IMG/VR virus record: IMGVR_UViG_3300037755_000305
Coordinates: 120,112-184,111 of that record
From: a virus
Strand: one strand, 5' to 3'
DNA: 64,000 bases
A model generated the notes under the pieces. It had not been told where the DNA came from. It worked only from the letters and a program-made list of their open reading frames with translations, and ran no database searches. The position numbers were made by a program, and so were the translations under genes. This document shows positions 3,269 through 48,640 of this stretch, in pieces (within the stretch, counting starts at the first letter, position 1; every line of letters begins with the position of its first letter).

Positions 3269-4026
3269 TACCAGTTAAATTCTCCCACCATAGAATAGGA
3301 CTTGAAAGACTTACCGGGAATGCTGCGCTTCGTAACACTGTTTTCGGCGTCTTCAATGCGCTTAGCGCCCTTGGGTTTCTCGTGTGTCTTTACGCCCCTG
3401 TCTATGATTGACTTTAGACCCCAAGCCGGGTGCTCGCCGTGCTCGCCGTGCTCGCCGGTGTCGTCAAAAGTTTCAGACTTGTGCGTAGACCAATTCAATT
3501 TTGCTGCTACACTTCCCATCATAGTTCTCTCGTAGTAGTCTCTGTCTCCGCCTCGTTGCCACTGTGGAGGAAGAGGTGCGGTATACTCGCTAGGGCTATC
3601 AATCAAATTTAACAACTGGTCATTAGGAACGTACTCATCGTCCAACATGATTTCGTTTTGGTCATCTTGCATCCAACCCTGGTTATCGGGTGTTGTGTTC
3701 GGGTTGCATTTGCCAATCTTGGGATCTTCTCCCTCTTCGCACGGTCGGGCCTCGGAAACGTCAGTACGCCAGCTCAATAGCTCAGCCATAGGAAATCCTA
3801 CACCTCGATAAGTTTCGTCTATTTGTGTAAGCTCTTCACTGACTGTGTGATCCGTCTTGTGCTTTTCCTTACGATTATAACCTTTTCCGCCTTTTTTACT
3901 GCTTTGTGGTCCGGCACTATTTTGGTTCACATCCTTATGCACTTCACGACTGGCTCGTCGAAGATCCTTAGAGATTTTCGGAGTCTTCTGTCCGCTGCCT
4001 TGTCTTCGTGTAGGTCCCTTTCCCAT
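3268..4026 (-). CDS. Hypothetical head-region protein
   Basis: 252 aa, basic N-terminus; carries RPCEEGEDPKIGKCNPNTTP, a motif shared with the 24408 protein. Confidence 0.6.
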   Translation of the reverse strand: MGKGPTRRQGSGQKTPKISKDLRRASREVHKDVNQNSAGPQSSKKGGKGYNRKEKHKTDHTVSEELTQIDETYRGVGFPMAELLSWRTDVSEARPCEEGEDPKIGKCNPNTTPDNQGWMQDDQNEIMLDDEYVPNDQLLNLIDSPSEYTAPLPPQWQRGGDRDYYERTMMGSVAAKLNWSTHKSETFDDTGEHGEHGEHPAWGLKSIIDRGVKTHEKPKGAKRIEDAENSVTKRSIPGKSFKSYSMVGEFNW

Positions 4027-4032
4027 AACATG

Positions 4033-4773
4033 CTACCGGATAGAATCTGACAAGGCTGTCGGATCTGCCGGGTCCTCTACGGAACTCTGCTCAAAGAACT
4101 GCACGCCAGCGCAAAGCTGATAGACAAGTCGACTATCCACGATAGATCCCTTACCCATTGCCATGCACCGACATGGCTTCTTGATGACTTCGACCTCGCC
4201 ACAGTTGGAGCACACGAAGTTCTGCACCAAAGCACCCATAGAGTAGCCGTTTCGGCGACCCGACAGGATGTCTGCTACAAGTTTCTGGTCCTTTGTGCGG
4301 TCGAAACCAGCAAGAGTCCTAATCTTCCATACGTTGTACGCTGGCACAAACTGGAGGGTAGAGTCGAAATGAACGCCCTTAGCCTCCAGTGGGTCAGAGT
4401 TTTTGTGGTCGATGTGCGTCGGGCGTCCTGTGAAGGTCTGATAAACCAGCGAACCTTGCATGTTGTCGAAGAAAGAAACCTCTTCGTAGGGGAACGCCTG
4501 AAGATTCCGGTTCGGGATATCAATCGTCACAGACGGAATGTCAACAATTACGTAGTCGTTGATGTCTCCGCTGATCTTGTAAGTGTCCGCAGCAGCCTGA
4601 AGCCAAGAAACATCAATGTCTCGCTTGAAATTGCTGGAAATTTCCTTGCCTTCTAGAACACTGGCAGTTACGCCCCTACCTTTGTCGTACTGGTAGGACT
4701 TATTACGTGCTTCGACCTTGTGCTCCGCCGAAACAACGGAGCCGTGTACAATATGGGGTGAATGTTCTGCCAT
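4033..4773 (-). CDS. Putative prohead protease
   Basis: GRPTHIDH...AKG and DILSGRRNGYSMGA (His/Ser motifs of HK97-type prohead proteases), followed by CSNC; downstream of the portal. Confidence 0.65.
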   Translation of the reverse strand: MAEHSPHIVHGSVVSAEHKVEARNKSYQYDKGRGVTASVLEGKEISSNFKRDIDVSWLQAAADTYKISGDINDYVIVDIPSVTIDIPNRNLQAFPYEEVSFFDNMQGSLVYQTFTGRPTHIDHKNSDPLEAKGVHFDSTLQFVPAYNVWKIRTLAGFDRTKDQKLVADILSGRRNGYSMGALVQNFVCSNCGEVEVIKKPCRCMAMGKGSIVDSRLVYQLCAGVQFFEQSSVEDPADPTALSDSIR

Positions 4774-10107: not shown

Positions 10108-10440
10108 TTACTCAACTGTCGGCATGCAGACGTTGTGGACTGGGCAAAAGAACGCGGGCCTTGCTCCAGCGATGGTTACAGGGGTCATATGGGCGTAGCA
10201 GATAGGACATTCATCCACGCGAGACGGATACTCTACTGGGCGAATGAGAGCGTTGTTTGCCTTTACCACATTAGCTTCTCCTCGCCGAATTCCCGCCAAA
10301 ACAGCCTCTACTTTCTTCTCGGAATCAGCACCAGCAACCTGCGCAGTGGTGCGCAATTTTCGAGTCTGCTCCAAAGAAAGCTTTAGTCTTTGCGCCACTC
10401 TGGATACGATATCGTCCATGGAAAGCCCCCTAACGGCCAC
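10108..10440 (-). CDS. Small Zn-ribbon protein
   Basis: CPIC...CPVHNVC; between terminase and portal. Confidence 0.65.
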   Translation of the reverse strand: MAVRGLSMDDIVSRVAQRLKLSLEQTRKLRTTAQVAGADSEKKVEAVLAGIRRGEANVVKANNALIRPVEYPSRVDECPICYAHMTPVTIAGARPAFFCPVHNVCMPTVE

Positions 10441-12424
10441 GAAAGCCGCGCTTAGTCGCTAAATTAGCGCCAGATGTTTTTTTTCTCGGGTCAATTCCGC
10501 TAGACCCTCTGCTCTTACTAGAGATAACCCCCAGGTTGCCGCCTGCGCCGCCCGCTGCCTCTATAGAATAGATCCTTTTCAGCTCTGGTCTGGCGATATG
10601 GTACATTCCCAAAGCCAGTGCGCGGAACATGTCATCTTCGCCATTTAGCGGTTTTGTCACTCTTCGTCCAACCTGTCGTACAGTCAGCATTTGTAAGATC
10701 AGTCCAAGAATTGGCTTGCCGTCCACAAATTCTATAGGGTTCTCGTAAGTCATTCGCAAATCTTCTACGGGTAACTCTGGCTTTGGCAGAATAAGTTCGC
10801 CAGAACTCAAACGTGCAGCGATCTCTACCAAATCCATAAATTTCAGTGTATACTGCTCAGACATGACTTTGTATTGTCGAAGCTTTTGAACCAAGTCTGT
10901 ACTATTCCATGTGTCCGAGAACATGTGCTTTATTAATAATCCGCTAACCAGTGGCTTGAAACAATGCTCCCACATTAGAGCGAAGTTAATTGGTATACCT
11001 TCCTCGGGCGGAACGTCAAATACGTAATCAACTCTCGGGCGATCCATCTTTGCATCCCAGGTCATCAACATAACAGCAAAATGGTTGCGTTTCTCGCCAG
11101 CGTCTACTAACAGCATTCTAGGCTTGCGTTTGTCGATGTGTGGAATCTCTACCTTAGCATACTTAGTCTTGTTTCCAAAATCGTCGATGTTATATTCCAT
11201 CTTGACTCTAATCAGGTTGTGCTTGTGTTCTGGGTTAATCATTAGATCAACACAGTTAGGATTGTCAATGAACGGGTCATTTGCCAAAGGAGGTACAGCG
11301 CCAAAGTCTCTTTCGGCTACCATTTTGCTTTTGTCATACTCTGGTTGTAAGCTTTCACGAGAAATGAAGGGATTAGCTTCCCAGGTAGGATAGTGGTAGG
11401 CGTAGATCTTCCTGTTGGTTCGTGCAGCTCGCACAGATCGCATAATGCGGTCGTTCTTATCTGAAGGGCTGGATATGTTGCAGGCGTAACCATCAGGCAG
11501 ATTGAATAGACTCCTCTTAGCTCTAAGCGTTTCAACCATGGAACGAACAGTTCGCAAAGAGTTATCCAGAGAAGCGGAAATTTCATCAGCAGACATAGTT
11601 ACCGATTGTTTAGCGGCATCTGCCTCCATCCATCCGATCTCGTCAATTGCGGTAAAAAACCTAGTCTTACCACGAAGGCGACGCTTGTTGGGAGCCTCGT
11701 ACATGCACGCGATGCGTTTGTGTTTGTACACGAGGAACGTTCTTGGTCTGTGAAGCAGTTCCGTACCAAGACGTTCTCCAGTGTCAGCCAGTAGCTTGTG
11801 GTATTCTACAAACCAGGGTGCCTGATCGACATACTCTTTGAAAGGCGTCCACAAAGAGGCTTCAGCCTGACCGGCAGAAATAGCGGTCATGGACATGTAT
11901 AGCTGGGAAGATGACAATAGACCTAGAGTACGAATAGGATCAGGTATACAAAGATATCGGTGCAGAATGTAGGCTGCAACCATTGCCACAACGGCAGACT
12001 TTCCAGAGCGCTGTCCGGCGCAGCCTGCCAATTCGTAAGGGTTGTGGAAATATCCCTGTTTAACGAAATCGTTTCGGTTCTTGCCACACTTAGGGCACAA
12101 GCCAAATTTCAGCAGCTTGACATTCTCTAGGATCTCGCCCATAGGCTGATCGAACAGGTCTAGGTCGCGCTCTTCTCCGTGAACCCAATCAGGATTAGAA
12201 CACTCCGGGCAATACTCCTCGAAGAACGAAAGACCTACTTCGATCTGTCTGGGATACGGCAACACGTTTAGGAACTTCTTGTTGATGCAGAAATCTAAAA
12301 AGTTAGGGGATTTGGCTACGTCACCCTCGTCAATGGTGGAGAAAATACCGGGATCGAGATCGGAAGCCAAAGCTTCTTCAATCATGCTCGACGGGGACCA
12401 CTGTTCTGAGACAGCCCTTGCCAT
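10430..12424 (-). CDS. Terminase large subunit
   Basis: Walker A GQRSGKS, Walker B FTAIDE, nuclease acidic residues LLVDAG and GEDD; N-terminal Cys insert. Start taken at ATG 12424. Confidence 0.9.
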   Translation of the reverse strand: MARAVSEQWSPSSMIEEALASDLDPGIFSTIDEGDVAKSPNFLDFCINKKFLNVLPYPRQIEVGLSFFEEYCPECSNPDWVHGEERDLDLFDQPMGEILENVKLLKFGLCPKCGKNRNDFVKQGYFHNPYELAGCAGQRSGKSAVVAMVAAYILHRYLCIPDPIRTLGLLSSSQLYMSMTAISAGQAEASLWTPFKEYVDQAPWFVEYHKLLADTGERLGTELLHRPRTFLVYKHKRIACMYEAPNKRRLRGKTRFFTAIDEIGWMEADAAKQSVTMSADEISASLDNSLRTVRSMVETLRAKRSLFNLPDGYACNISSPSDKNDRIMRSVRAARTNRKIYAYHYPTWEANPFISRESLQPEYDKSKMVAERDFGAVPPLANDPFIDNPNCVDLMINPEHKHNLIRVKMEYNIDDFGNKTKYAKVEIPHIDKRKPRMLLVDAGEKRNHFAVMLMTWDAKMDRPRVDYVFDVPPEEGIPINFALMWEHCFKPLVSGLLIKHMFSDTWNSTDLVQKLRQYKVMSEQYTLKFMDLVEIAARLSSGELILPKPELPVEDLRMTYENPIEFVDGKPILGLILQMLTVRQVGRRVTKPLNGEDDMFRALALGMYHIARPELKRIYSIEAAGGAGGNLGVISSKSRGSSGIDPRKKTSGANLATKRGFRGR

Positions 12425-12425
12425 A

Positions 12426-13055
12426 TTATTTGCTCTTCTTAATCTTGGAGCACAGAAGGTCTTCGAGGCGTCGGCGACCATCGTCGTAAGCTTCGTCCAT
12501 TCCGCCTCGAATACCAGACAGCAAGTCGCGCATCTCGTGTGTGACTACACCAGCATTCTCTGCTGGTGTAATTGCCATAAGAGCAGATCTCTTTCTTTCG
12601 GCCTCCGACGTTAGGATCTTGATGAATTCCGCAATCATGGGACGAATTACAGCTTCTTCAACTTCACTCGCCAAATCCATTGGGTCCTGTCGTTCCTCGA
12701 TAGACTTCACCAGTTCTCTAGTCATATTCTGCATCTGTGTCAGAGCTGTGGCTGTTCCCTGGCGCGGATTAGCGTGATAGGCTATCTCCGCCATCTCCGT
12801 CGCCCTAAGTGTAATCTGAAGATTTCGCCGAAGGACTTCTTTGAACGGCAAGGAGTTGATAGAAGCATCGTCCGAAACCAGAGATGACAAATCTACCATT
12901 GTAGGAACGACTCGAAGATCCCCGTCAGCGTCTAGAAACGGGTCATCATTACGTTCGTCCCTGTCTTCCTTTTCTCGTCCAGCTTTGGTAAGATCGTCTA
13001 AAAGGGCTTCCGAAGCAGCGTCCTCCGATTTGGACATTCTTTTGGGTCTGGGCAT
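12426..13055 (-). CDS. Helical protein, candidate terminase small subunit
   Basis: Immediately upstream of TerL; helical composition. Positional inference. Confidence 0.4.
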   Translation of the reverse strand: MPRPKRMSKSEDAASEALLDDLTKAGREKEDRDERNDDPFLDADGDLRVVPTMVDLSSLVSDDASINSLPFKEVLRRNLQITLRATEMAEIAYHANPRQGTATALTQMQNMTRELVKSIEERQDPMDLASEVEEAVIRPMIAEFIKILTSEAERKRSALMAITPAENAGVVTHEMRDLLSGIRGGMDEAYDDGRRRLEDLLCSKIKKSK

Positions 13056-17034: not shown

Positions 17035-17429
17035 TATTCGTCCTCCAAGTAAGCCAATTCACAAAGCGTTTCGCATTCAGCAGCCAGATCGTCATGCCCC
17101 GCTGATTCAAATATTTCAGCAGCATGTTCGAGCACATAGACCATTTTCTGCCTATCTGCTTCTCGGTCTCTAAATCGAATATCGTTGATTTCTTCTTTAG
17201 TTTTTGGAGGAAGAAGGGGATTCCACAGAGGTTCCCTGGGGTGTCCTTGGAAGAAATCCCGCCAACCGTCTGTTCCGTGGGGATCGAGACCTTCGTTCTC
17301 TTCGGAAAATGTAGGGGTTTTGGTTCGGAACTTTTGATCTGATGTACCAAACCAGTCGCCCGGGGCGGGTTTAGGTCGCTCGCCCGCTTCCTCGTCATCG
17401 TCGGCTCTGAAAAACTTTGGTTGGGACAC
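17034..17429 (-). CDS. Hypothetical protein
   Basis: Coupled ORF, 131 aa. Confidence 0.45.
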   Translation of the reverse strand: MSQPKFFRADDDEEAGERPKPAPGDWFGTSDQKFRTKTPTFSEENEGLDPHGTDGWRDFFQGHPREPLWNPLLPPKTKEEINDIRFRDREADRQKMVYVLEHAAEIFESAGHDDLAAECETLCELAYLEDE

Positions 17430-17480
17430 AGATATTCCTCCATTCTAGATATAACTTATGTCTTGAATGGAGGGCTCGCA

Positions 17481-18458
17481 ATGCTAAGAAAAGCAGATAA
17501 TATCCGCACAACCGACGCCCATCAGGTAAATCGGGACAACTGGGCTTTCGATAAAACCCAGGCAAAAGAAGACTTTCCACATGAAGTTGCTCTGAGAGAT
17601 TTGGTTCCCCGAATTCAGTCCAGAGCCCGAGATGCTTTGGCTGTGGATCGTGTAGAGACTCTCTTTTTTCAGCGAAAGCTAACAGGTCGCCGGTGCTCTT
17701 GCTTCATCGTGGAATCCTCACCCGACGGACAGTGCCAAACCTGTTACGGCACAGGCATCGTTGGAGGCTATACCAAGTTCGGAACAACCGATCTCACAAT
17801 CGACGTTACCAGCCCCAGTCTGCGCTGTGTTAATGTGCGACCGCTCTACGAACTTCAAGCGCGCCCTGTACTTATGGGACTGGACGACAGCGCCCTAGAG
17901 GGTTACATTGAGGTTGACGTGGAAATTCGCCAATCTATAGGGGTTACTGACACCTTCAAATTCGTTGCCAGAACGACATCCCTCACACAGAACAACAGCA
18001 TCACACCTCTTGTCCGACGATCGGACGAGACAGACTTTGTTCCTATCACATACGCTAATCTTGATTCCAGACTCAAGTCCCAGAAGCTCACGTTCAGGTT
18101 CGAGTTCTCTCGGGCGACTCTGAGCGATGCCAATCCAATCATGTCGCATTTCTTTCTCAGGGCCAAGCTCGTGAATGACCTGACAGTTCGTGTGGACCTT
18201 CCTAGGGACCGAGAGAGCATTACTTTGGCAGAGTTCGGAATATACGACTCGTGGACCGTGATTACTGGATACTTCGACAACACTGTACCAAGAGTTGGCG
18301 TAGAAGATTTCGTTTTCCGTTGCAGAGATCAGGAATTATGGAAAGTGGTGGATTCAAGCCCCAATCGACCGCTCAACATCCTTACTAGCCACGATGTTAG
18401 CTTACGTCTAGTGCAGACATTCGAGCCTTACGTGAATGTTCCTATAGGTAAGACCTAA
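17481..18458 (+). CDS. Putative neck/head-closure protein
   Basis: GGAGG RBS; CSC...CQTCYGTGIVGGY motif typical of such phage neck proteins; first gene of the plus-strand virion block. Confidence 0.5.
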   Translation: MLRKADNIRTTDAHQVNRDNWAFDKTQAKEDFPHEVALRDLVPRIQSRARDALAVDRVETLFFQRKLTGRRCSCFIVESSPDGQCQTCYGTGIVGGYTKFGTTDLTIDVTSPSLRCVNVRPLYELQARPVLMGLDDSALEGYIEVDVEIRQSIGVTDTFKFVARTTSLTQNNSITPLVRRSDETDFVPITYANLDSRLKSQKLTFRFEFSRATLSDANPIMSHFFLRAKLVNDLTVRVDLPRDRESITLAEFGIYDSWTVITGYFDNTVPRVGVEDFVFRCRDQELWKVVDSSPNRPLNILTSHDVSLRLVQTFEPYVNVPIGKT

Positions 18459-32408: not shown

Positions 32409-32825
32409 CTAACCAGAGGGACAGAATACTTGTCTAATCTTATCAATGATATCGCTCGTGTGTGTCTGCGAGCCAACCTCCAGACAAAAGGTCTGTTTAG
32501 CGTACTCTCGGCCGAGTACCTCGTCTGGGGAATAGTCTGGACCCTTCACTAAGACATCCGGACAAATCTCTGATAGCAAGCGCTCCGGCGTATCTTCGCT
32601 GAAGATGCGTACTTCGTCAACACACTCCAAAGCATCCAGAACTTCGTATCGTGACTGTTCATCGTTGATGGGGTTGCGGCCCTTATGGCGTCGGAAGCTT
32701 TCATCCGAATTAAGACCTACAATGAGCCAATCTCCGTAGTTCTTGGCAGCAACCAAATACCTAACGTGACCTACATGGAGTAGGTCGAAACAACCGTTTG
32801 TGAATACTACTTTTTTATTGCTCAT
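32409..32825 (-). CDS. D-glycero-beta-D-manno-heptose 1-phosphate adenylyltransferase (RfaE domain II/HldC-like)
   Basis: VFTNGCFDLLHVGHVRYL, LIVGLNSDES, FSEDTP, PDVLVKGPDY. Confidence 0.9.
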   Translation of the reverse strand: MSNKKVVFTNGCFDLLHVGHVRYLVAAKNYGDWLIVGLNSDESFRRHKGRNPINDEQSRYEVLDALECVDEVRIFSEDTPERLLSEICPDVLVKGPDYSPDEVLGREYAKQTFCLEVGSQTHTSDIIDKIRQVFCPSG

Positions 32826-33834
32826 GGTGTACTACCATATTCCTAATGACTAAGAGAAGCATAATACCGAATACCAGACCAAGAGGTATAGAAGGCTCTG
32901 GCACCGGTACTATAGGACCAACTCCAGAAACAGCCGCCACACGGAATCCAGTACCAGAAGCCTCTTGCATAGGACCTTCCGCGAACCTATGGGAAGAGGC
33001 TAATGTGTATACCCCTGTGTTGAGACTGCCACCACGAATAATTCTCCGATCCTCACTGATCTCCTCTGTCCATTCCCAGACGTTTCCGCCTTGGTCAAAT
33101 GTTCCATAAGGACCAGATGTTGTAGAATAGGAGCCTACTGGCGTCTTTTCTCCCGGGTAGCTTCCCACAATATTGTTACAATTGGCTTGGTTTTCAGTCG
33201 AAGAAGGAGCGGCACATACTGGGGCAGTATTAGAAAAAGGATACTTGGTATAGCTATCAGTATCATTGTGATAATACGCTGCCTTGTACCATTCATTCTC
33301 ATTAGGCAGAAACACTAGTGCTCCAGGGTTTCTAGTTACGCTGTTATTAGCAATCTTTTCTGGTGTGAGTGTGTACGCTCCGTCTTCTGTAGTGTTCTCA
33401 TCTTGAGCACCAGAAAGTGCCCCGTTATGTAACCAATTCACGTATCGAACAGCGTCATAAAAAGATACGAACGTAACGGGACGTATTTTTAGTTCTTCCA
33501 CAACAGAGTAAGTGTAGTTTCCTGAAGCGCCTTTTCTACGTATTGAAGGAAATTTTCTCAACGGAGGAAAGCTTTTGGACATTTCTGGGTTGTAGAGACC
33601 AAACGTATCAACAGCAGCCACAGCGTTCAAAAACATTACATACTGTTGATTCGTAACCTCGAATATGGATAACCTGAACTCGTAAGGGACCACACCGCAT
33701 GCGGCTGAACAATTTCCCGAAGCATCGAAGGAAGCTTCTGTGTCTGCTATGTTTACCGCCTCATGGTATTCTTCGGCTGCGCTAGTGCTGGAAAGCAATA
33801 AAACTAGAAATAAAACATGGAGCCAGAAACGCAT
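32815..33834 (-). CDS. FGE-sulfatase (SUMF1)-domain protein with signal peptide and PEP-CTERM tail
   Basis: Signal peptide; FEVTNQQY...RPVTFVSFYDA...LPNENEWYKAA...GTFDQGGNVWEW...GFRVA; ends VPEPS + TM helix + RN. Confidence 0.9.
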   Translation of the reverse strand: MRFWLHVLFLVLLLSSTSAAEEYHEAVNIADTEASFDASGNCSAACGVVPYEFRLSIFEVTNQQYVMFLNAVAAVDTFGLYNPEMSKSFPPLRKFPSIRRKGASGNYTYSVVEELKIRPVTFVSFYDAVRYVNWLHNGALSGAQDENTTEDGAYTLTPEKIANNSVTRNPGALVFLPNENEWYKAAYYHNDTDSYTKYPFSNTAPVCAAPSSTENQANCNNIVGSYPGEKTPVGSYSTTSGPYGTFDQGGNVWEWTEEISEDRRIIRGGSLNTGVYTLASSHRFAEGPMQEASGTGFRVAAVSGVGPIVPVPEPSIPLGLVFGIMLLLVIRNMVVHHEQ

Positions 33835-33913
33835 ATGCTGTGTAGATCCTTTCGAATTATGTCTTATACAAGCCCAGCGTCTCCCTTTAGTGTTCATTCG
33901 CACAAGGTGTACA

Positions 33914-34423
33914 ATGCCTATCAGATTTCGCATATCCCCTCTAGCGCTTGCCCCTGGGGGAGCATTAGTTAGCTACACAGGTACGGATTTACCTCTAGCA
34001 CAGACATTGCAATATCCAAGAATTCCAACATTGAACTCGGGGTCTAGCTTAATCGCTACAGTTTCTCCATTGACTTTTCGGTCAAACATAAACGAGGACG
34101 GAACGTTCCCTATTAGACCTGCCAATTCCGTTAGCCAAACTAGCAAGTTGTTGGTGCATGTTTCTACTTCTGGGTCCGCTACAGTTCATCATGCGGAAGA
34201 CAACACCTACCAAACAGGGTTCAGCCTCGCTTACGGGTTGTACGTATCAATACAGGGAACTTCCATGCATGAAGACATATTCGAAAGGGCACTTAACGAT
34301 ACACGTGGGTCTCAGTTCAAGGCAAACCTACAAGAACTAATAGCGCGAAGCATACTTGAAGTTCGAAACCAATCCGGTGCTCCTATGAGCCCGTCAGAAA
34401 TAGGCTCCTACATAGCGCCCTGA
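33914..34423 (+). CDS. Hypothetical protein
   Basis: AAGGTG RBS before ATG 33914. Confidence 0.55.
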   Translation: MPIRFRISPLALAPGGALVSYTGTDLPLAQTLQYPRIPTLNSGSSLIATVSPLTFRSNINEDGTFPIRPANSVSQTSKLLVHVSTSGSATVHHAEDNTYQTGFSLAYGLYVSIQGTSMHEDIFERALNDTRGSQFKANLQELIARSILEVRNQSGAPMSPSEIGSYIAP

Positions 34424-34785
34424 TCTGCACTGACTTTCTCCCGTATCGCTTTTAGAGTACGGGATTCTTCTACGGCAGCCTTACGTCCCTCGGTAAGCGC
34501 TTTGACCGCTGCTTCAAGATCGCAATATCGAGCGTCGTGCTCAAGGCGATACTGTTCCATATAGCGTATCTGTTCCTTTAGGTGAAAGATACACGCGGAT
34601 TGGTCTTTGTGGACCGTCTCCCCGGAGTTAGCAGTGTGCAATTCTCCCATGTTTCCGCCACATGCGTCACAAAACCCGTACTGGGTATTGGAGCAGACCC
34701 TAGTCTCGTGATCTGCTGATTGCCACGAATCCTCGCTATCGTAGGTCTTGCCACAGTGCGAGCATAGAATGTAGTGGCTCGTCAT
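34408..34785 (-). CDS. Zn-finger hypothetical protein
   Basis: CSHC...CDAC; C-terminal coiled coil. Confidence 0.6.
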   Translation of the reverse strand: MTSHYILCSHCGKTYDSEDSWQSADHETRVCSNTQYGFCDACGGNMGELHTANSGETVHKDQSACIFHLKEQIRYMEQYRLEHDARYCDLEAAVKALTEGRKAAVEESRTLKAIREKVSADQGAM

Positions 34786-35009
34786 GCCTGGATGTACTCC
34801 TTGGTAGGGTCCCCGTCCGGGCGACGCCTACCAGTCTCGCAGTGGCGGAACCAACCTTCCGGTTCTTTGCCTTCCTCAATATCCTCTAAGGCCGCGACCG
34901 CAGCCTCCTTGGAATCGTATCACCAGTTGTCGAAGACATTGAATCCGTCGGTTTTAATGATGCGGTACTTTCCCAGCAGCATTCCGCAAATCTCATACCA
35001 AATCTTCAT
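34782..35009 (-). CDS. 75-aa protein with in-frame UGA at codon 30 (candidate selenoprotein, or nonsense allele)
   Basis: GGAG RBS; MKIWYEICG...FDNW(UGA)YDSKEAA...GWFRHCETGRRRPDGDPTKEYIQA*; the final stop overlaps the next ATG (ATGA). Confidence 0.65.
34889..34906 (-). promoter_or_regulatory. SECIS-like hairpin
   Basis: AGGCUGC-GGUC-GCGGCCU; stem begins 14 nt after the UGA and the loop occupies nt 21-24. Confidence 0.55.
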
Positions 35010-35190
35010 CTATGTTCTCCATGTTATCGCGAATAGAAGCAGCCTTGTTCCTGGCGTGTCCTAGATCATCAGCCTCAATGCGGATCCAGCTCTGTCCCCA
35101 CTCTTCAGTAAGCCCGCCCTGCCCTTCGAAAAAGTCTCCCTCTTTTACGAAGACATTTGGGTACTTCAAAAGTGCGTAGTATTTACCCAT
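34993..35190 (-). CDS. Hypothetical protein
   Basis: Short coupled ORF. Confidence 0.55.
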   Translation of the reverse strand: MGKYYALLKYPNVFVKEGDFFEGQGGLTEEWGQSWIRIEADDLGHARNKAASIRDNMENIDEDLV

Positions 35191-36177: not shown

Positions 36178-37410
36178 TTACCCCTTCACGCACAAGACTT
36201 GTTTAAGCGTATGCTTGATTTCCACCAAAGACTCTTGAGCCTTCATCACACTGTCAATAGACTTATACGCACCAGGGGTTTCATCCAAAACTCCAATGTC
36301 TTTTCTACATTCCACGCCCTCGGTAGCAGCAATGTGGTCGTCCAGCGTAAATTGTTTCTTGGCCGCAGAACGACTCATCACTCTCCCAGCACCATGCGAA
36401 CACGAGTCGAAGCTTTCCGGGTTGCCCTTGCCCTCTACAATGAACGACTTAGCGCCCATCGAACCCGGGATGATTCCCATGACACCCTTGCGAGCGCACA
36501 CAGCTCCCTTGCGGGTCAACCACACGTTGTCTCCGTAGTGGTTCTCGCGAGTAGTGTAGTTGTGGTGACAGTTGACGGCAACATCGTGCGTCAATAGCTT
36601 CTTCTGCGGAACTCCGCCCTCACGCTTCAGCGCGTCGAAAACCTGAACCACCATGAGATCACGATTGATGCGAGCAAAGTCCTGCCCCCACTCCATAGCC
36701 TCGATGTAGTCATCGAAATACTGAGTGCCTTCCGGCAAGTACGCCAAGTCACGGTCCGGGAGGTGAATGAAATGCTTCGACATCTCTTCCTTCGCCAAAT
36801 CCGTGAAGTATCGGCCGATAATGTTACCCGGACCACGGCTTCCCGAGTGTAGCATCAGCCACACGCGATCAGCCTCGTCCAAGCAAATCTCGATGAAGTG
36901 ATTCCCGCTGCCCAGCGTACCTAGCTGCAAGGAAGCCGCCTTGTGGAAGATAGACTTGTGCTTCGCCAAAATGTTCTGGTAGCGAGCGTCCAACTTGTTG
37001 GCCCATGCTAGAGCATGCGTCTTCGGAACATCGCCCGAAGCGTATCCACCCTTGTTGTGGGAAGCCCCCTTGACAGCGCCAGTCGGAACAGCGTGCTCGA
37101 TAGCCGAACGCCAGCCCTTCAAGTTTGTCGGAAGGTCAGTGGACTCCATGCCCGTCCGTACGGCGACCATGCCGCAGCCAATATCGACCCCGACCGCAGA
37201 CGGTATAATAGCCCCTTTCGTTGGAATGACTGAGCCTACAGTGGCCCCAAAACCAAAGTGGCAATCAGGCATGACGGCGACGTGCTTGTGGATGAACGGC
37301 AGAGATGCAACATTACGCAACTGTCCCAGAGCGGCTTCTTCGACCGGAACGCCCTTCGTGAATGCCTTGATCGGCACAAGGCCACCCTGATAAACGTCAA
37401 AATCACTCAT
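36178..37410 (-). CDS. rtcB: RNA 2',3'-cyclic phosphate/5'-OH ligase RtcB
   Basis: MPDCH, VGVDIGCGM, LGTLGSGNHFIE, HSGSRG, CHHNY, IIPGSMG, SHGAGR, DETPGAYK. Confidence 0.97.
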   Translation of the reverse strand: MSDFDVYQGGLVPIKAFTKGVPVEEAALGQLRNVASLPFIHKHVAVMPDCHFGFGATVGSVIPTKGAIIPSAVGVDIGCGMVAVRTGMESTDLPTNLKGWRSAIEHAVPTGAVKGASHNKGGYASGDVPKTHALAWANKLDARYQNILAKHKSIFHKAASLQLGTLGSGNHFIEICLDEADRVWLMLHSGSRGPGNIIGRYFTDLAKEEMSKHFIHLPDRDLAYLPEGTQYFDDYIEAMEWGQDFARINRDLMVVQVFDALKREGGVPQKKLLTHDVAVNCHHNYTTRENHYGDNVWLTRKGAVCARKGVMGIIPGSMGAKSFIVEGKGNPESFDSCSHGAGRVMSRSAAKKQFTLDDHIAATEGVECRKDIGVLDETPGAYKSIDSVMKAQESLVEIKHTLKQVLCVKG

Positions 37411-39982: not shown

Positions 39983-40070
39983 TGGCGGAAGATAGAGGAT
40001 TTGAACCTCTGTGGGTTTTACCCCGCATCGCTTTCCAAGCGAGCCCGTTTGTCCTCTCCGGCAATCTTCC
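39983..40070 (-). tRNA. tRNA-Ser(GGA)
   Basis: Cloverleaf, long variable arm, CCA. Confidence 0.93.
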
Positions 40071-48020: not shown

Positions 48021-48539
48021 TTAGTCTATGGCATATGGGGGTGGAGAAGGTTTCTGAGATAGATTAGAGTTCTCCCACTCGTCTCCAAGCTGATTCAGCT
48101 TGGTTGTGAAAGTGTTGATGTCTTCATCGAAAGATATGATTGTCTCAGTCGTGCGAGGAATGTAGTCCCCGACAACCATATCTGCGTAGCGCTGTAGGTT
48201 GGCCAGAATTGCTTCTGCGACCTTCAAAGCTCTATTCTCCGTCTTGATTAAAGGGCTGAGCAGTGTGTACTGGGAACCAGAGCCCCGGATCGCTTCATCT
48301 CGAACGATACCAATTTCCCGGAAGCGCCCGTTGATTGGATCGTAATTGAATTCAACTCTGACTTCTTTGTATGGTTGATCTGCTTTTGCGTATGAAATGC
48401 CTCTTTCTGCCACTACAGAACCGACGGCCCTGCACCGAGGACAATAGAAAGTTTCTCCGTGGTTGAGAAGGAATACGCCTATGGCGTAGTCATCGCAATT
48501 CGTATCGCCGCAATAACCTACAGCACGTTTCATCGACAT
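48021..48539 (-). CDS. Zn-binding hypothetical protein
   Basis: AAGGAG RBS; C...C...CPRC; downstream of a sigma28 promoter. Confidence 0.65.
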   Translation of the reverse strand: MSMKRAVGYCGDTNCDDYAIGVFLLNHGETFYCPRCRAVGSVVAERGISYAKADQPYKEVRVEFNYDPINGRFREIGIVRDEAIRGSGSQYTLLSPLIKTENRALKVAEAILANLQRYADMVVGDYIPRTTETIISFDEDINTFTTKLNQLGDEWENSNLSQKPSPPPYAID

Positions 48540-48558
48540 TCAGTTCTCCTTGGATATT

Positions 48559-48585
48559 ATATCGGACGATCCGTGGAGAACTTTA
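48559..48585 (-). promoter_or_regulatory. sigma28-type promoter
   Basis: TAAA-N15-TCCGATAT. Confidence 0.7.
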
Positions 48586-48597
48586 GTGTTTTGCCAC

Positions 48598-48640
48598 AAA
48601 AAACCCGCCAGTTTGAGCATCGTTGAGAGGCTTGGCGGGT
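48598..48640 (-). terminator. Rho-independent terminator closing tRNA block 2
   Basis: ACCCGCCA...TGGCGGGT followed by a T run. Confidence 0.65.

Follow-up and report, generated by a model that had tools for sequence, protein, structure and literature searches.

That UGA can be decoded as selenocysteine (Sec) is well established for cellular organisms and for two poxviruses. The prototype of the bacterial SelB/SECIS type is the fdhF gene of Escherichia coli: an in-frame UGA, which is aligned with cysteine, is followed immediately downstream by a hairpin that is still part of the coding region. The apical loop of the fdhF hairpin is GGUC with G23 and U24, and a U (U17) is bulged out of the 5' arm below the loop. 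Sec insertion in bacteria is inefficient and competes with RF2. A 2026 review of prokaryotic selenoproteomes (PMC13188914) summarizes what a bacterial SECIS (bSECIS) has to look like: an apical loop of 3–9 nt, an upper stem of 4–16 bp, a G within the first two loop positions, usually as G[G/U], a spacing of 16–37 nt between UGA and loop, and a hairpin free energy of −7.5 kcal/mol or lower.

In viruses, the topic is quickly reviewed. The poxvirus selenoproteins are the glutathione peroxidases of molluscum contagiosum and fowlpox viruses (PMC8310308). In huge phages, tRNA-Sec genes were predicted, but no selenoprotein gene was reported (PMC10747093). Our literature search yielded no publication that describes a selenoprotein of any bacterial virus; for phages only the tRNA-Sec predictions were found. 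Phages are mentioned neither in the 2026 review (PMC13188914) nor in the 2026 paper on the bacterial selenoprotein database (BSepDB).

The DNA analysed here, called the window, is the 64-kb end of an IMG/VR virus record of 184,111 bp with an estimated completeness of 69%. It contains genes for a large terminase, a portal protein and RtcB, and 29 tRNA genes. Most likely, although not with certainty, it also contains a gene that follows the bacterial type and encodes a genuine selenoprotein; that selenium is incorporated has not been shown by experiment. The locus shares with the fdhF type the in-frame UGA, the aligned cysteine and the hairpin immediately behind the UGA.

The interrupted frame and its hairpin

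The features of the locus are compiled in Table 1. The initial annotation had proposed a frame of 75 codons with a good ribosome binding site, a UGA at codon 30 between W and Y, and a terminal stop that overlaps the next ATG. All these elements are present, on the minus strand. Beyond the internal TGA the frame stays open for another 45 codons, and no in-frame ATG, GTG or TTG follows that could serve a separate start. Gene callers, however, end the ORF after 29 codons.

Table 1. Features of the putative selenoprotein locus (window coordinates)
Feature	Position	Strand	Remarks
Putative selenoprotein ORF	34782..35009	minus	75 codons, proposed Sec = codon 30; homologues align over the full length
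Start ATG of this ORF	35009-35007	minus	
RBS GGAG	35017..35020	minus	7 nt upstream of ATG; read directly from the sequence
Internal TGA, proposed Sec codon 30	34920..34922	minus	context W-TGA-Y (W-U-Y); DNW-UGA-YD
SECIS-like hairpin	34888..34907	minus	8-bp stem, 34907-34900 with 34895-34888; GGUC loop 34899-34896
Terminal TGA of the full frame	34782..34784	minus	no hairpin after it; ATGA overlap with ATG of the next gene (34785-34783)
Downstream gene	34408..34785	minus	125 aa, CxxC...CxxC motifs; translationally coupled via ATGA

A general reassignment of TGA in this genome (code 4 or 25) was considered and rejected: outside this locus TGA serves as a normal stop, terminating 25 of the 104 long ORFs, and translation with table 11 leaves very long ORFs uninterrupted.

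The 125-aa gene downstream has no match in Pfam. As a neighbour it is restricted to the window's own subclade, where it is common to L015, L016, L017, L098 and L099, and clustering of the neighbouring genes revealed none that is conserved across the family. Close by, all on the minus strand, lie an intact RtcB RNA ligase (E 3e-124; 36178-37410), a cytidylyltransferase-like gene (32409-32825) and a gene with an FGE-sulfatase domain (32815-33933). On the contig of a relative, RtcB, a 72-aa gene and the family gene are syntenic.

The hairpin had been noticed from the beginning as AGGCUGC-GGUC-GCGGCCU with its loop 21–24 nt past the UGA. It is found there, and its stem extends to 8 bp, G-U pairs included, without any interruption. 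The stem begins 12 nt after the TGA, which results in a spacing of 20 nt between UGA and loop. The hairpin alone is worth −12.4 kcal/mol, the surrounding 36 nt −16.8 kcal/mol, with a z of −4.1 against shuffled sequences. With a 4-nt GGUC loop, 8 bp of stem, 20 nt of spacing and this energy, all of the published bSECIS constraints (PMC13188914) are met. A covariance model built from the family members with a tetraloop gave a single strong match in the 64-kb window, precisely at the hairpin site (30.2 bits; the next one reached 15.0 bits), which places the site beyond chance; the flanking phage DNA, about 540 kb in total, offers little else of this strength. Rfam yielded no match up to E = 10 at 34700-35100. 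This is weak evidence, since the bacterial SECIS models deposited there are clade-specific.

The initial annotation had also pointed to a likeness to the fdhF element. It holds for the GGUC loop with its G-U and, roughly, for the distance, the G-U of the window lying 2 nt further from the UGA. It does not hold for the stem: that of fdhF has the bulged U, that of the window is perfect, and a bulged U was seen in L109 alone.

When the whole record was scanned for open frames that continue beyond a TGA and have a hairpin nearby, 48021-48620 (minus), 17124-18458 (plus) and 3823-4656 (plus) were returned as well. One example is an 8-bp stem with a GUUA loop at +25, upstream of a 172-aa ORF (48021-48539). 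These other loci are probably due to chance or represent N-terminal extensions.

A family with cysteine or UGA at one codon

Homologues were collected by pattern scans of IMG/VR, of JGI metagenomes and of the GTDB species genomes, each being confirmed by tblastn. The roughly 170 loci correspond, after removal of duplicates, to about 147 distinct homologues, most of them on phage contigs. They also occur in isolated jumbo phages of Caulobacter and Sinorhizobium. The closest full-length relatives (71–78% identity) read DNWCYD, their DNA having TGT or TGC at the codon in question; the W-C-Y that the initial annotation had given for homologues thus proved true. Its expectation that homologues have either Cys or UGA there was likewise borne out with few exceptions. 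TGC or TGT is found in 102 members from the scans and in 8 from bacterial genomes and TGA in 32, i.e., the window and 31 others; five have something else, namely TTA (3) or GAC (2). Ten of the TGA members reside on IMG/VR viral contigs, three of which are complete genomes.

TAA or TAG was never seen at this column in the family. This had to be expected anyway, because only TGA is one step away from a Cys codon. More telling is the rest of the protein: in-frame stops at any other column occur just once, in L122, and random nonsense mutations would not cluster at a single codon. The exception (L122:858-1016) is a member of the Cys type. Four codons past its Cys a TAG takes the place of the CAG of L121, which probably reflects an error or a defective copy.

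Could the TGA of the window be an error as well, the true codon being TGC or TGT? The window is a single contig derived from a metagenome, without a check at the level of reads, but the same TGA was obtained in 31 other sequences that were assembled independently from many samples. A sequencing or assembly error hence hardly deserves serious consideration.

The residues adjacent to the stop are conserved: it is preceded by W or Y and followed by Y or F. Invariant or nearly so are W29, C/U30, A37, W44, E49, P50, G52, W53, R55, H56, G60, R61-R63 and E71. A difference between the groups is seen further downstream, where most TGA members have GWFRH and Cys members GWHRH. A few members have neither Cys nor UGA. 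The close relatives L017, L098 and L099 have Leu (TTA) at this column together with a degraded hairpin, and L160 and L166 have Asp; in some lineages, therefore, the residue is dispensable or the protein has been repurposed.

For pairs of TGA-bearing members, the dN/dS downstream of the TGA was 0.07–0.34 in 11 of 12 cases, one pair being saturated (36–38 codons); the synonymous divergence of this part amounts to 0.35–0.71, again with one saturated pair. When the window is compared with its close relatives, the corresponding dN/dS is 0.10–0.22 in four out of five comparisons. As judged from these alignments, the segment behind the stop is under strong purifying selection in the TGA-bearing pairs. 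The low dN/dS and the conserved flanking residues together imply that the two halves make up one protein and that the UGA must be decoded. Translation beyond the UGA may accordingly be regarded as well supported by sequence comparison; which residue is inserted cannot be deduced from selection data.

The hairpin across the family

Loop lengths in the family vary (4, 5 or 7 nt) and some stems are bulged. Statistics that presume one fixed structure are weak for this reason: RNAalifold, applied to an ungapped alignment of 28 sequences, returned 2 pairs only, and a single fixed tetraloop structure was paired to 60%. We therefore used position profiles, a comparison of own with swapped stem arms, and the tetraloop subset. 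The tetraloop covariance model misses members with a pentaloop and so understates the family.

For the profiles, the longest uninterrupted stem was measured for every possible loop position. The TGA members display a sharp peak where the loop starts about 21–23 nt after the UGA, with a mean stem of 5.5 bp. Stems of at least 5 bp are present there in 68% of them; in Cys members the same position has a mean of 3.2 bp and such stems in 18%, and at other positions the values are about 2 bp and about 3%. An equal frequency of the hairpin in Cys homologues, which the initial annotation had named as a possible refutation, was thus not observed. The exceptions are the closest Cys relatives of the window, L014 and L015, which retain the same hairpin. 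The loop conforms to N-G-U in 25 of 28 TGA members, as compared to 10 of 110 Cys members; its forms in the TGA group are GGUC, CGUGN, AGUU and UGUNN, and the G-U derives from a Val codon that is conserved in this group only.

The two arms fit each other better than they fit those of other members. Complementarity is 5.57 of 7 with the own arm and 4.36 with swapped ones, and none of 5000 permutations reached the observed value. Among 11 tetraloop members, 92% of the cells are paired and two pairs occur in 5–6 pair types; the covariation score is 0.52, as opposed to 0.20 in shuffles (0 of 500 as high) and at most 0.16 in slid controls. Many of the compensations are non-synonymous, e.g., Asp GAC opposite Val GTC or Gly GGC opposite Ala GCC. 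The structure consequently cannot have arisen as a mere side effect of a fixed peptide, although codons for Ala-Ala-Val-Ala-Ala do show partial self-complementarity.

When a strict, bulge-free version of the published bSECIS constraints (PMC13188914) was applied to the family, 21 of 32 TGA members passed, but only 8 of 110 Cys members. In 20 of the 21 the spacing is 19–21 nt. About a third of the TGA members fail this test; the failures include the bulged stems of L105, L109, L110, L111 and L117, and L054, L093 and L125 have no convincing hairpin.

A second stem peak is seen in TGA members 62–70 nt past the TGA, with at least 5 bp in 54% of them and in 5% of the Cys members. In the window it lies at 34840-34870 (minus) and apparently arises from the codons for E-P-x-G-W-F (GAACC...GGTTC). 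It may be a by-product of the Phe in GWFRH, as against the His in GWHRH, or a lower helix of the SECIS.

The history of the Sec codon was inferred from a maximum-likelihood tree, which is based on few columns and leaves many forks unresolved. In this tree, 27 of 28 TGA rows fall into one clade of 44, together with 12 Cys, 3 Leu and 2 Asp rows; the remaining 99 rows all have Cys, with the exception of one TGA. The association of TGA with the hairpin is accordingly found mostly within one clade, and the phylogenetically independent pairs are too few for a firm test: of three supported ones, two were concordant and none discordant, which is not significant and underpowered. Sec appears to be ancestral to this clade and to have given way repeatedly to Cys (TGY) or Leu (TTA), the hairpin decaying thereafter, as far as the tree allows such a reconstruction.

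The window itself holds a peculiar position. It is the only TGA row of a well-supported subclade of eight, the others having Cys (four, TGT or TGC) or Leu (three, all TTA). Its host has not been identified, its Cys sisters L014 and L015 have the same hairpin, and a single mutation converts TGY into TGA. Its copy might hence have suffered a recent nonsense mutation; it could be a pseudogene, or else a Sec gene that has ended up in a host lacking the Sec machinery. In either case only the N-terminal peptide of 29 residues would be made, and the hairpin would be a relic. The retention of the hairpin by the Cys sisters indeed means that the hairpin alone does not prove Sec decoding for the window copy. 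A nonsense mutation, however, does not explain why 31 distinct relatives have TGA at the very same column, with one stop elsewhere in the family. The window copy is otherwise free of defects, even if it sits on a long end branch (0.34); the downstream dN/dS given above is low and the ATGA coupling is intact. Finally, TGT, TGC and TTA are each one step away from TGA, while two steps separate TGY from TTA, which favours a TGA ancestor as the best source of the mixture in this subclade. Besides the window, L014 and L015 have preserved an intact hairpin, whereas L016, L097 and the members with TTA show it in a degraded form; relaxation after loss of the Sec codon would produce such a pattern. We thus consider a recent nonsense mutation unlikely.

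Sec decoding accordingly remains our preferred reading. For the family as a whole we regard it as highly probable, for the window copy as probable, both on the grounds of comparative sequence data. The more guarded wording for the latter is chosen because the hairpin also occurs in the Cys sisters and the phylogenetically controlled test is underpowered.

Host machinery, protein product and comparison with known systems

The statement of the initial annotation that the window has no tRNA-Sec can be extended: there is none in the whole 184-kb record either. All 29 tRNA genes are located on the minus strand between window positions 39983 and 63738; none has the anticodon UCA. Nor does a tRNA-Sec above the cut-off occur in five other phage genomes with the TGA, of which three are complete. 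In phages lacking tRNA-Sec the trans factors must come from the host, and the dependence on host SelABC that had been postulated fits these findings.

Which hosts these are is less clear. The large terminase (10430-12481) has about 32% identity to assorted jumbo phages and permits no inference on the host. Among 185,579 species genomes, the only TGA copy of the family was detected in a Planctomycetota metagenome-assembled genome (MAG; G001), on a phage-like contig with a DnaB-type helicase. This MAG has a tRNA-Sec scoring 71 bits (cut-off 47) and a selB scoring 325 bits. Two native selenoprotein genes, L203 and L205, were seen in it: a selD with an in-frame TGA (GG-U-A) and a molybdoenzyme of the Fdh type with TGA at the canonical site (CAAT-U-HAP). 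In fdh, the SECIS consists of a 7-bp stem with the loop GGUCU, which follows the UGA by 19 nt; selD has an 8-bp stem with the loop CGUGC at 27 nt; the family gene in the same MAG has a 7-bp stem with a GGUC loop at 21 nt. The native loop types are those met across the phage family. Of course, this host link is a single case, and the phage-like contig might be mis-binned. Cys-bearing copies are not confined to hosts without Sec, since three of five host genomes with the Cys form contain a tRNA-Sec match over the cut-off.

From these data the following sequence of events may be proposed. Ribosomes would start at ATG 35009, guided by the GGAG upstream, and reach UGA-30, with the stable GGUC-loop hairpin 12 nt downstream. 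Host SelB, loaded with GTP and Sec-tRNA(Sec), is inferred to bind the G-U of the apical loop and to deliver Sec in competition with RF2. Translation would then run through 45 more codons to the real stop and be coupled by ATGA to the next gene. The phage would provide the cis elements only, whereas tRNA-Sec, SelA, SelB and SelD would be supplied by the host.

As the inserted residue is undetermined, reading through the UGA could also proceed without selenium, be it by a near-cognate tRNA-Trp, a suppressor with a UCA anticodon or a Cys tRNA, the hairpin merely slowing down termination. tRNA(Sec)-like tRNAs that carry Cys have indeed been described in bacteria (PMC5389517). The record, however, contains no UCA anticodon, and the five other TGA-bearing phages contain nothing that scores as tRNA-Sec. 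The aligned residue is Cys and never Trp, and the loop retains the G-U that is read by SelB. Moreover, the one linked host genome has a Sec system, with tRNA-Sec, selB and selD found, and native SECIS loops of similar kind. Selenium-free read-through is therefore considered very unlikely.

A last possibility is that termination at UGA-30 works as a switch: a short peptide would mostly be made, and the full protein only if selenium and SelB are available. The inefficiency of Sec insertion and the U that follows the UGA in all members are compatible with it. Yet the N-terminal part is the least conserved one in the family, which argues against a functional short peptide, and the switch would refine Sec decoding rather than replace it. 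As an explanation in its own right it is quite improbable.

For the Sec-containing protein, an AlphaFold2 model was obtained from a 74-sequence alignment (pLDDT 95.3, pTM 0.81). It consists of strands 4-9, 15-20 and 25-31, a helix (34-45) and the conserved C-terminal segment. In the model, Sec-30 is at the end of strand 3, directly before the helix, and the basic motif EPxGW[F/H]RH..GRRR is C-terminal of it. Searches did not reveal the function: the window protein has no match in Pfam and no sequence-profile match in the PDB, Foldseek against PDB and BFVD gave no functional match, and a protein language-model atlas returned unnamed viral clusters only. The best, albeit weak, structural matches are to UPF0339/DUF1508 (YegP-like) proteins, which have three strands followed by a helix in common with it. 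The Z scores are 4.3–4.7 to 3bid, 6q2z and 2k7i and 3.1 to 2k49, at 20–24% identity, and thus within the range of a merely common arrangement. As far as could be tested, these proteins lack both the basic C-terminal motif and the Cys/Sec. A lone conserved Cys or Sec next to the N-terminus of a helix and to a cluster of Arg and His suggests a redox or nucleophilic residue that acts on an anionic ligand. This is mere inference. A role in redox or nucleophilic chemistry is probable for the product, but our confidence in this model-based assignment is low and the function remains undetermined.

Among the known relatives are the proteins of phrog_24748, also of unknown function, which include hypothetical proteins of the Caulobacter phages C2 and CcrBL9 and the Sinorhizobium phage Phosso. 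They share the W-C-Y and GWHRH..GRRR motifs with the family, but all have Cys where the window gene has UGA. Four Cys homologues match the phrog_24748 profile with E values of 1e-8 to 9e-4; the window protein does not match it at E 0.1, but aligns with those four.

If Sec is really inserted, recoding biology extends to bacterial viruses; how well the host is supplied with selenium and whether it is competent for Sec decoding would then influence phage gene expression in a hidden way, and possibly the host range. There would also be a systematic gap in annotation, because gene callers truncate such genes. The family would offer a compact natural set of about 30 SECIS variants for studies on SelB specificity. 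The questions then to be asked are whether phage fitness depends on selenium, and why a small phage protein needs Sec over Cys.

The mechanism itself, that of bacterial SelB and SECIS, is an established one; what is new is the carrier and the protein family. On balance, we are inclined to count the family among the first selenoprotein families of bacterial viruses, read by the SelABCD system of the host, with Sec being ancestral in one clade and exchanged for Cys or Leu as lineages change hosts; this wider view is somewhat more speculative than the decoding itself. In contrast to the known bacterial selenoproteins, the window gene is borne by a phage, comes without a tRNA-Sec of its own and belongs neither to the described selenoprotein families nor to Pfam. 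With the poxvirus glutathione peroxidases (PMC8310308) it shares the principle that a UGA in a viral gene is redefined as Sec by the machinery of the host, and the fowlpox SECIS is also situated in the coding region; those enzymes, however, are captured cellular genes that depend on a eukaryotic SECIS and SBP2, whereas the SECIS of the window, located in the gene of a phage-specific protein, is of the type known from bacterial SelB. The tRNA-Sec genes of huge phages (PMC10747093) and the family described here both suggest that phages engage in Sec decoding, the former presenting the tRNA without a reported selenoprotein gene, the latter the gene without a phage tRNA-Sec.
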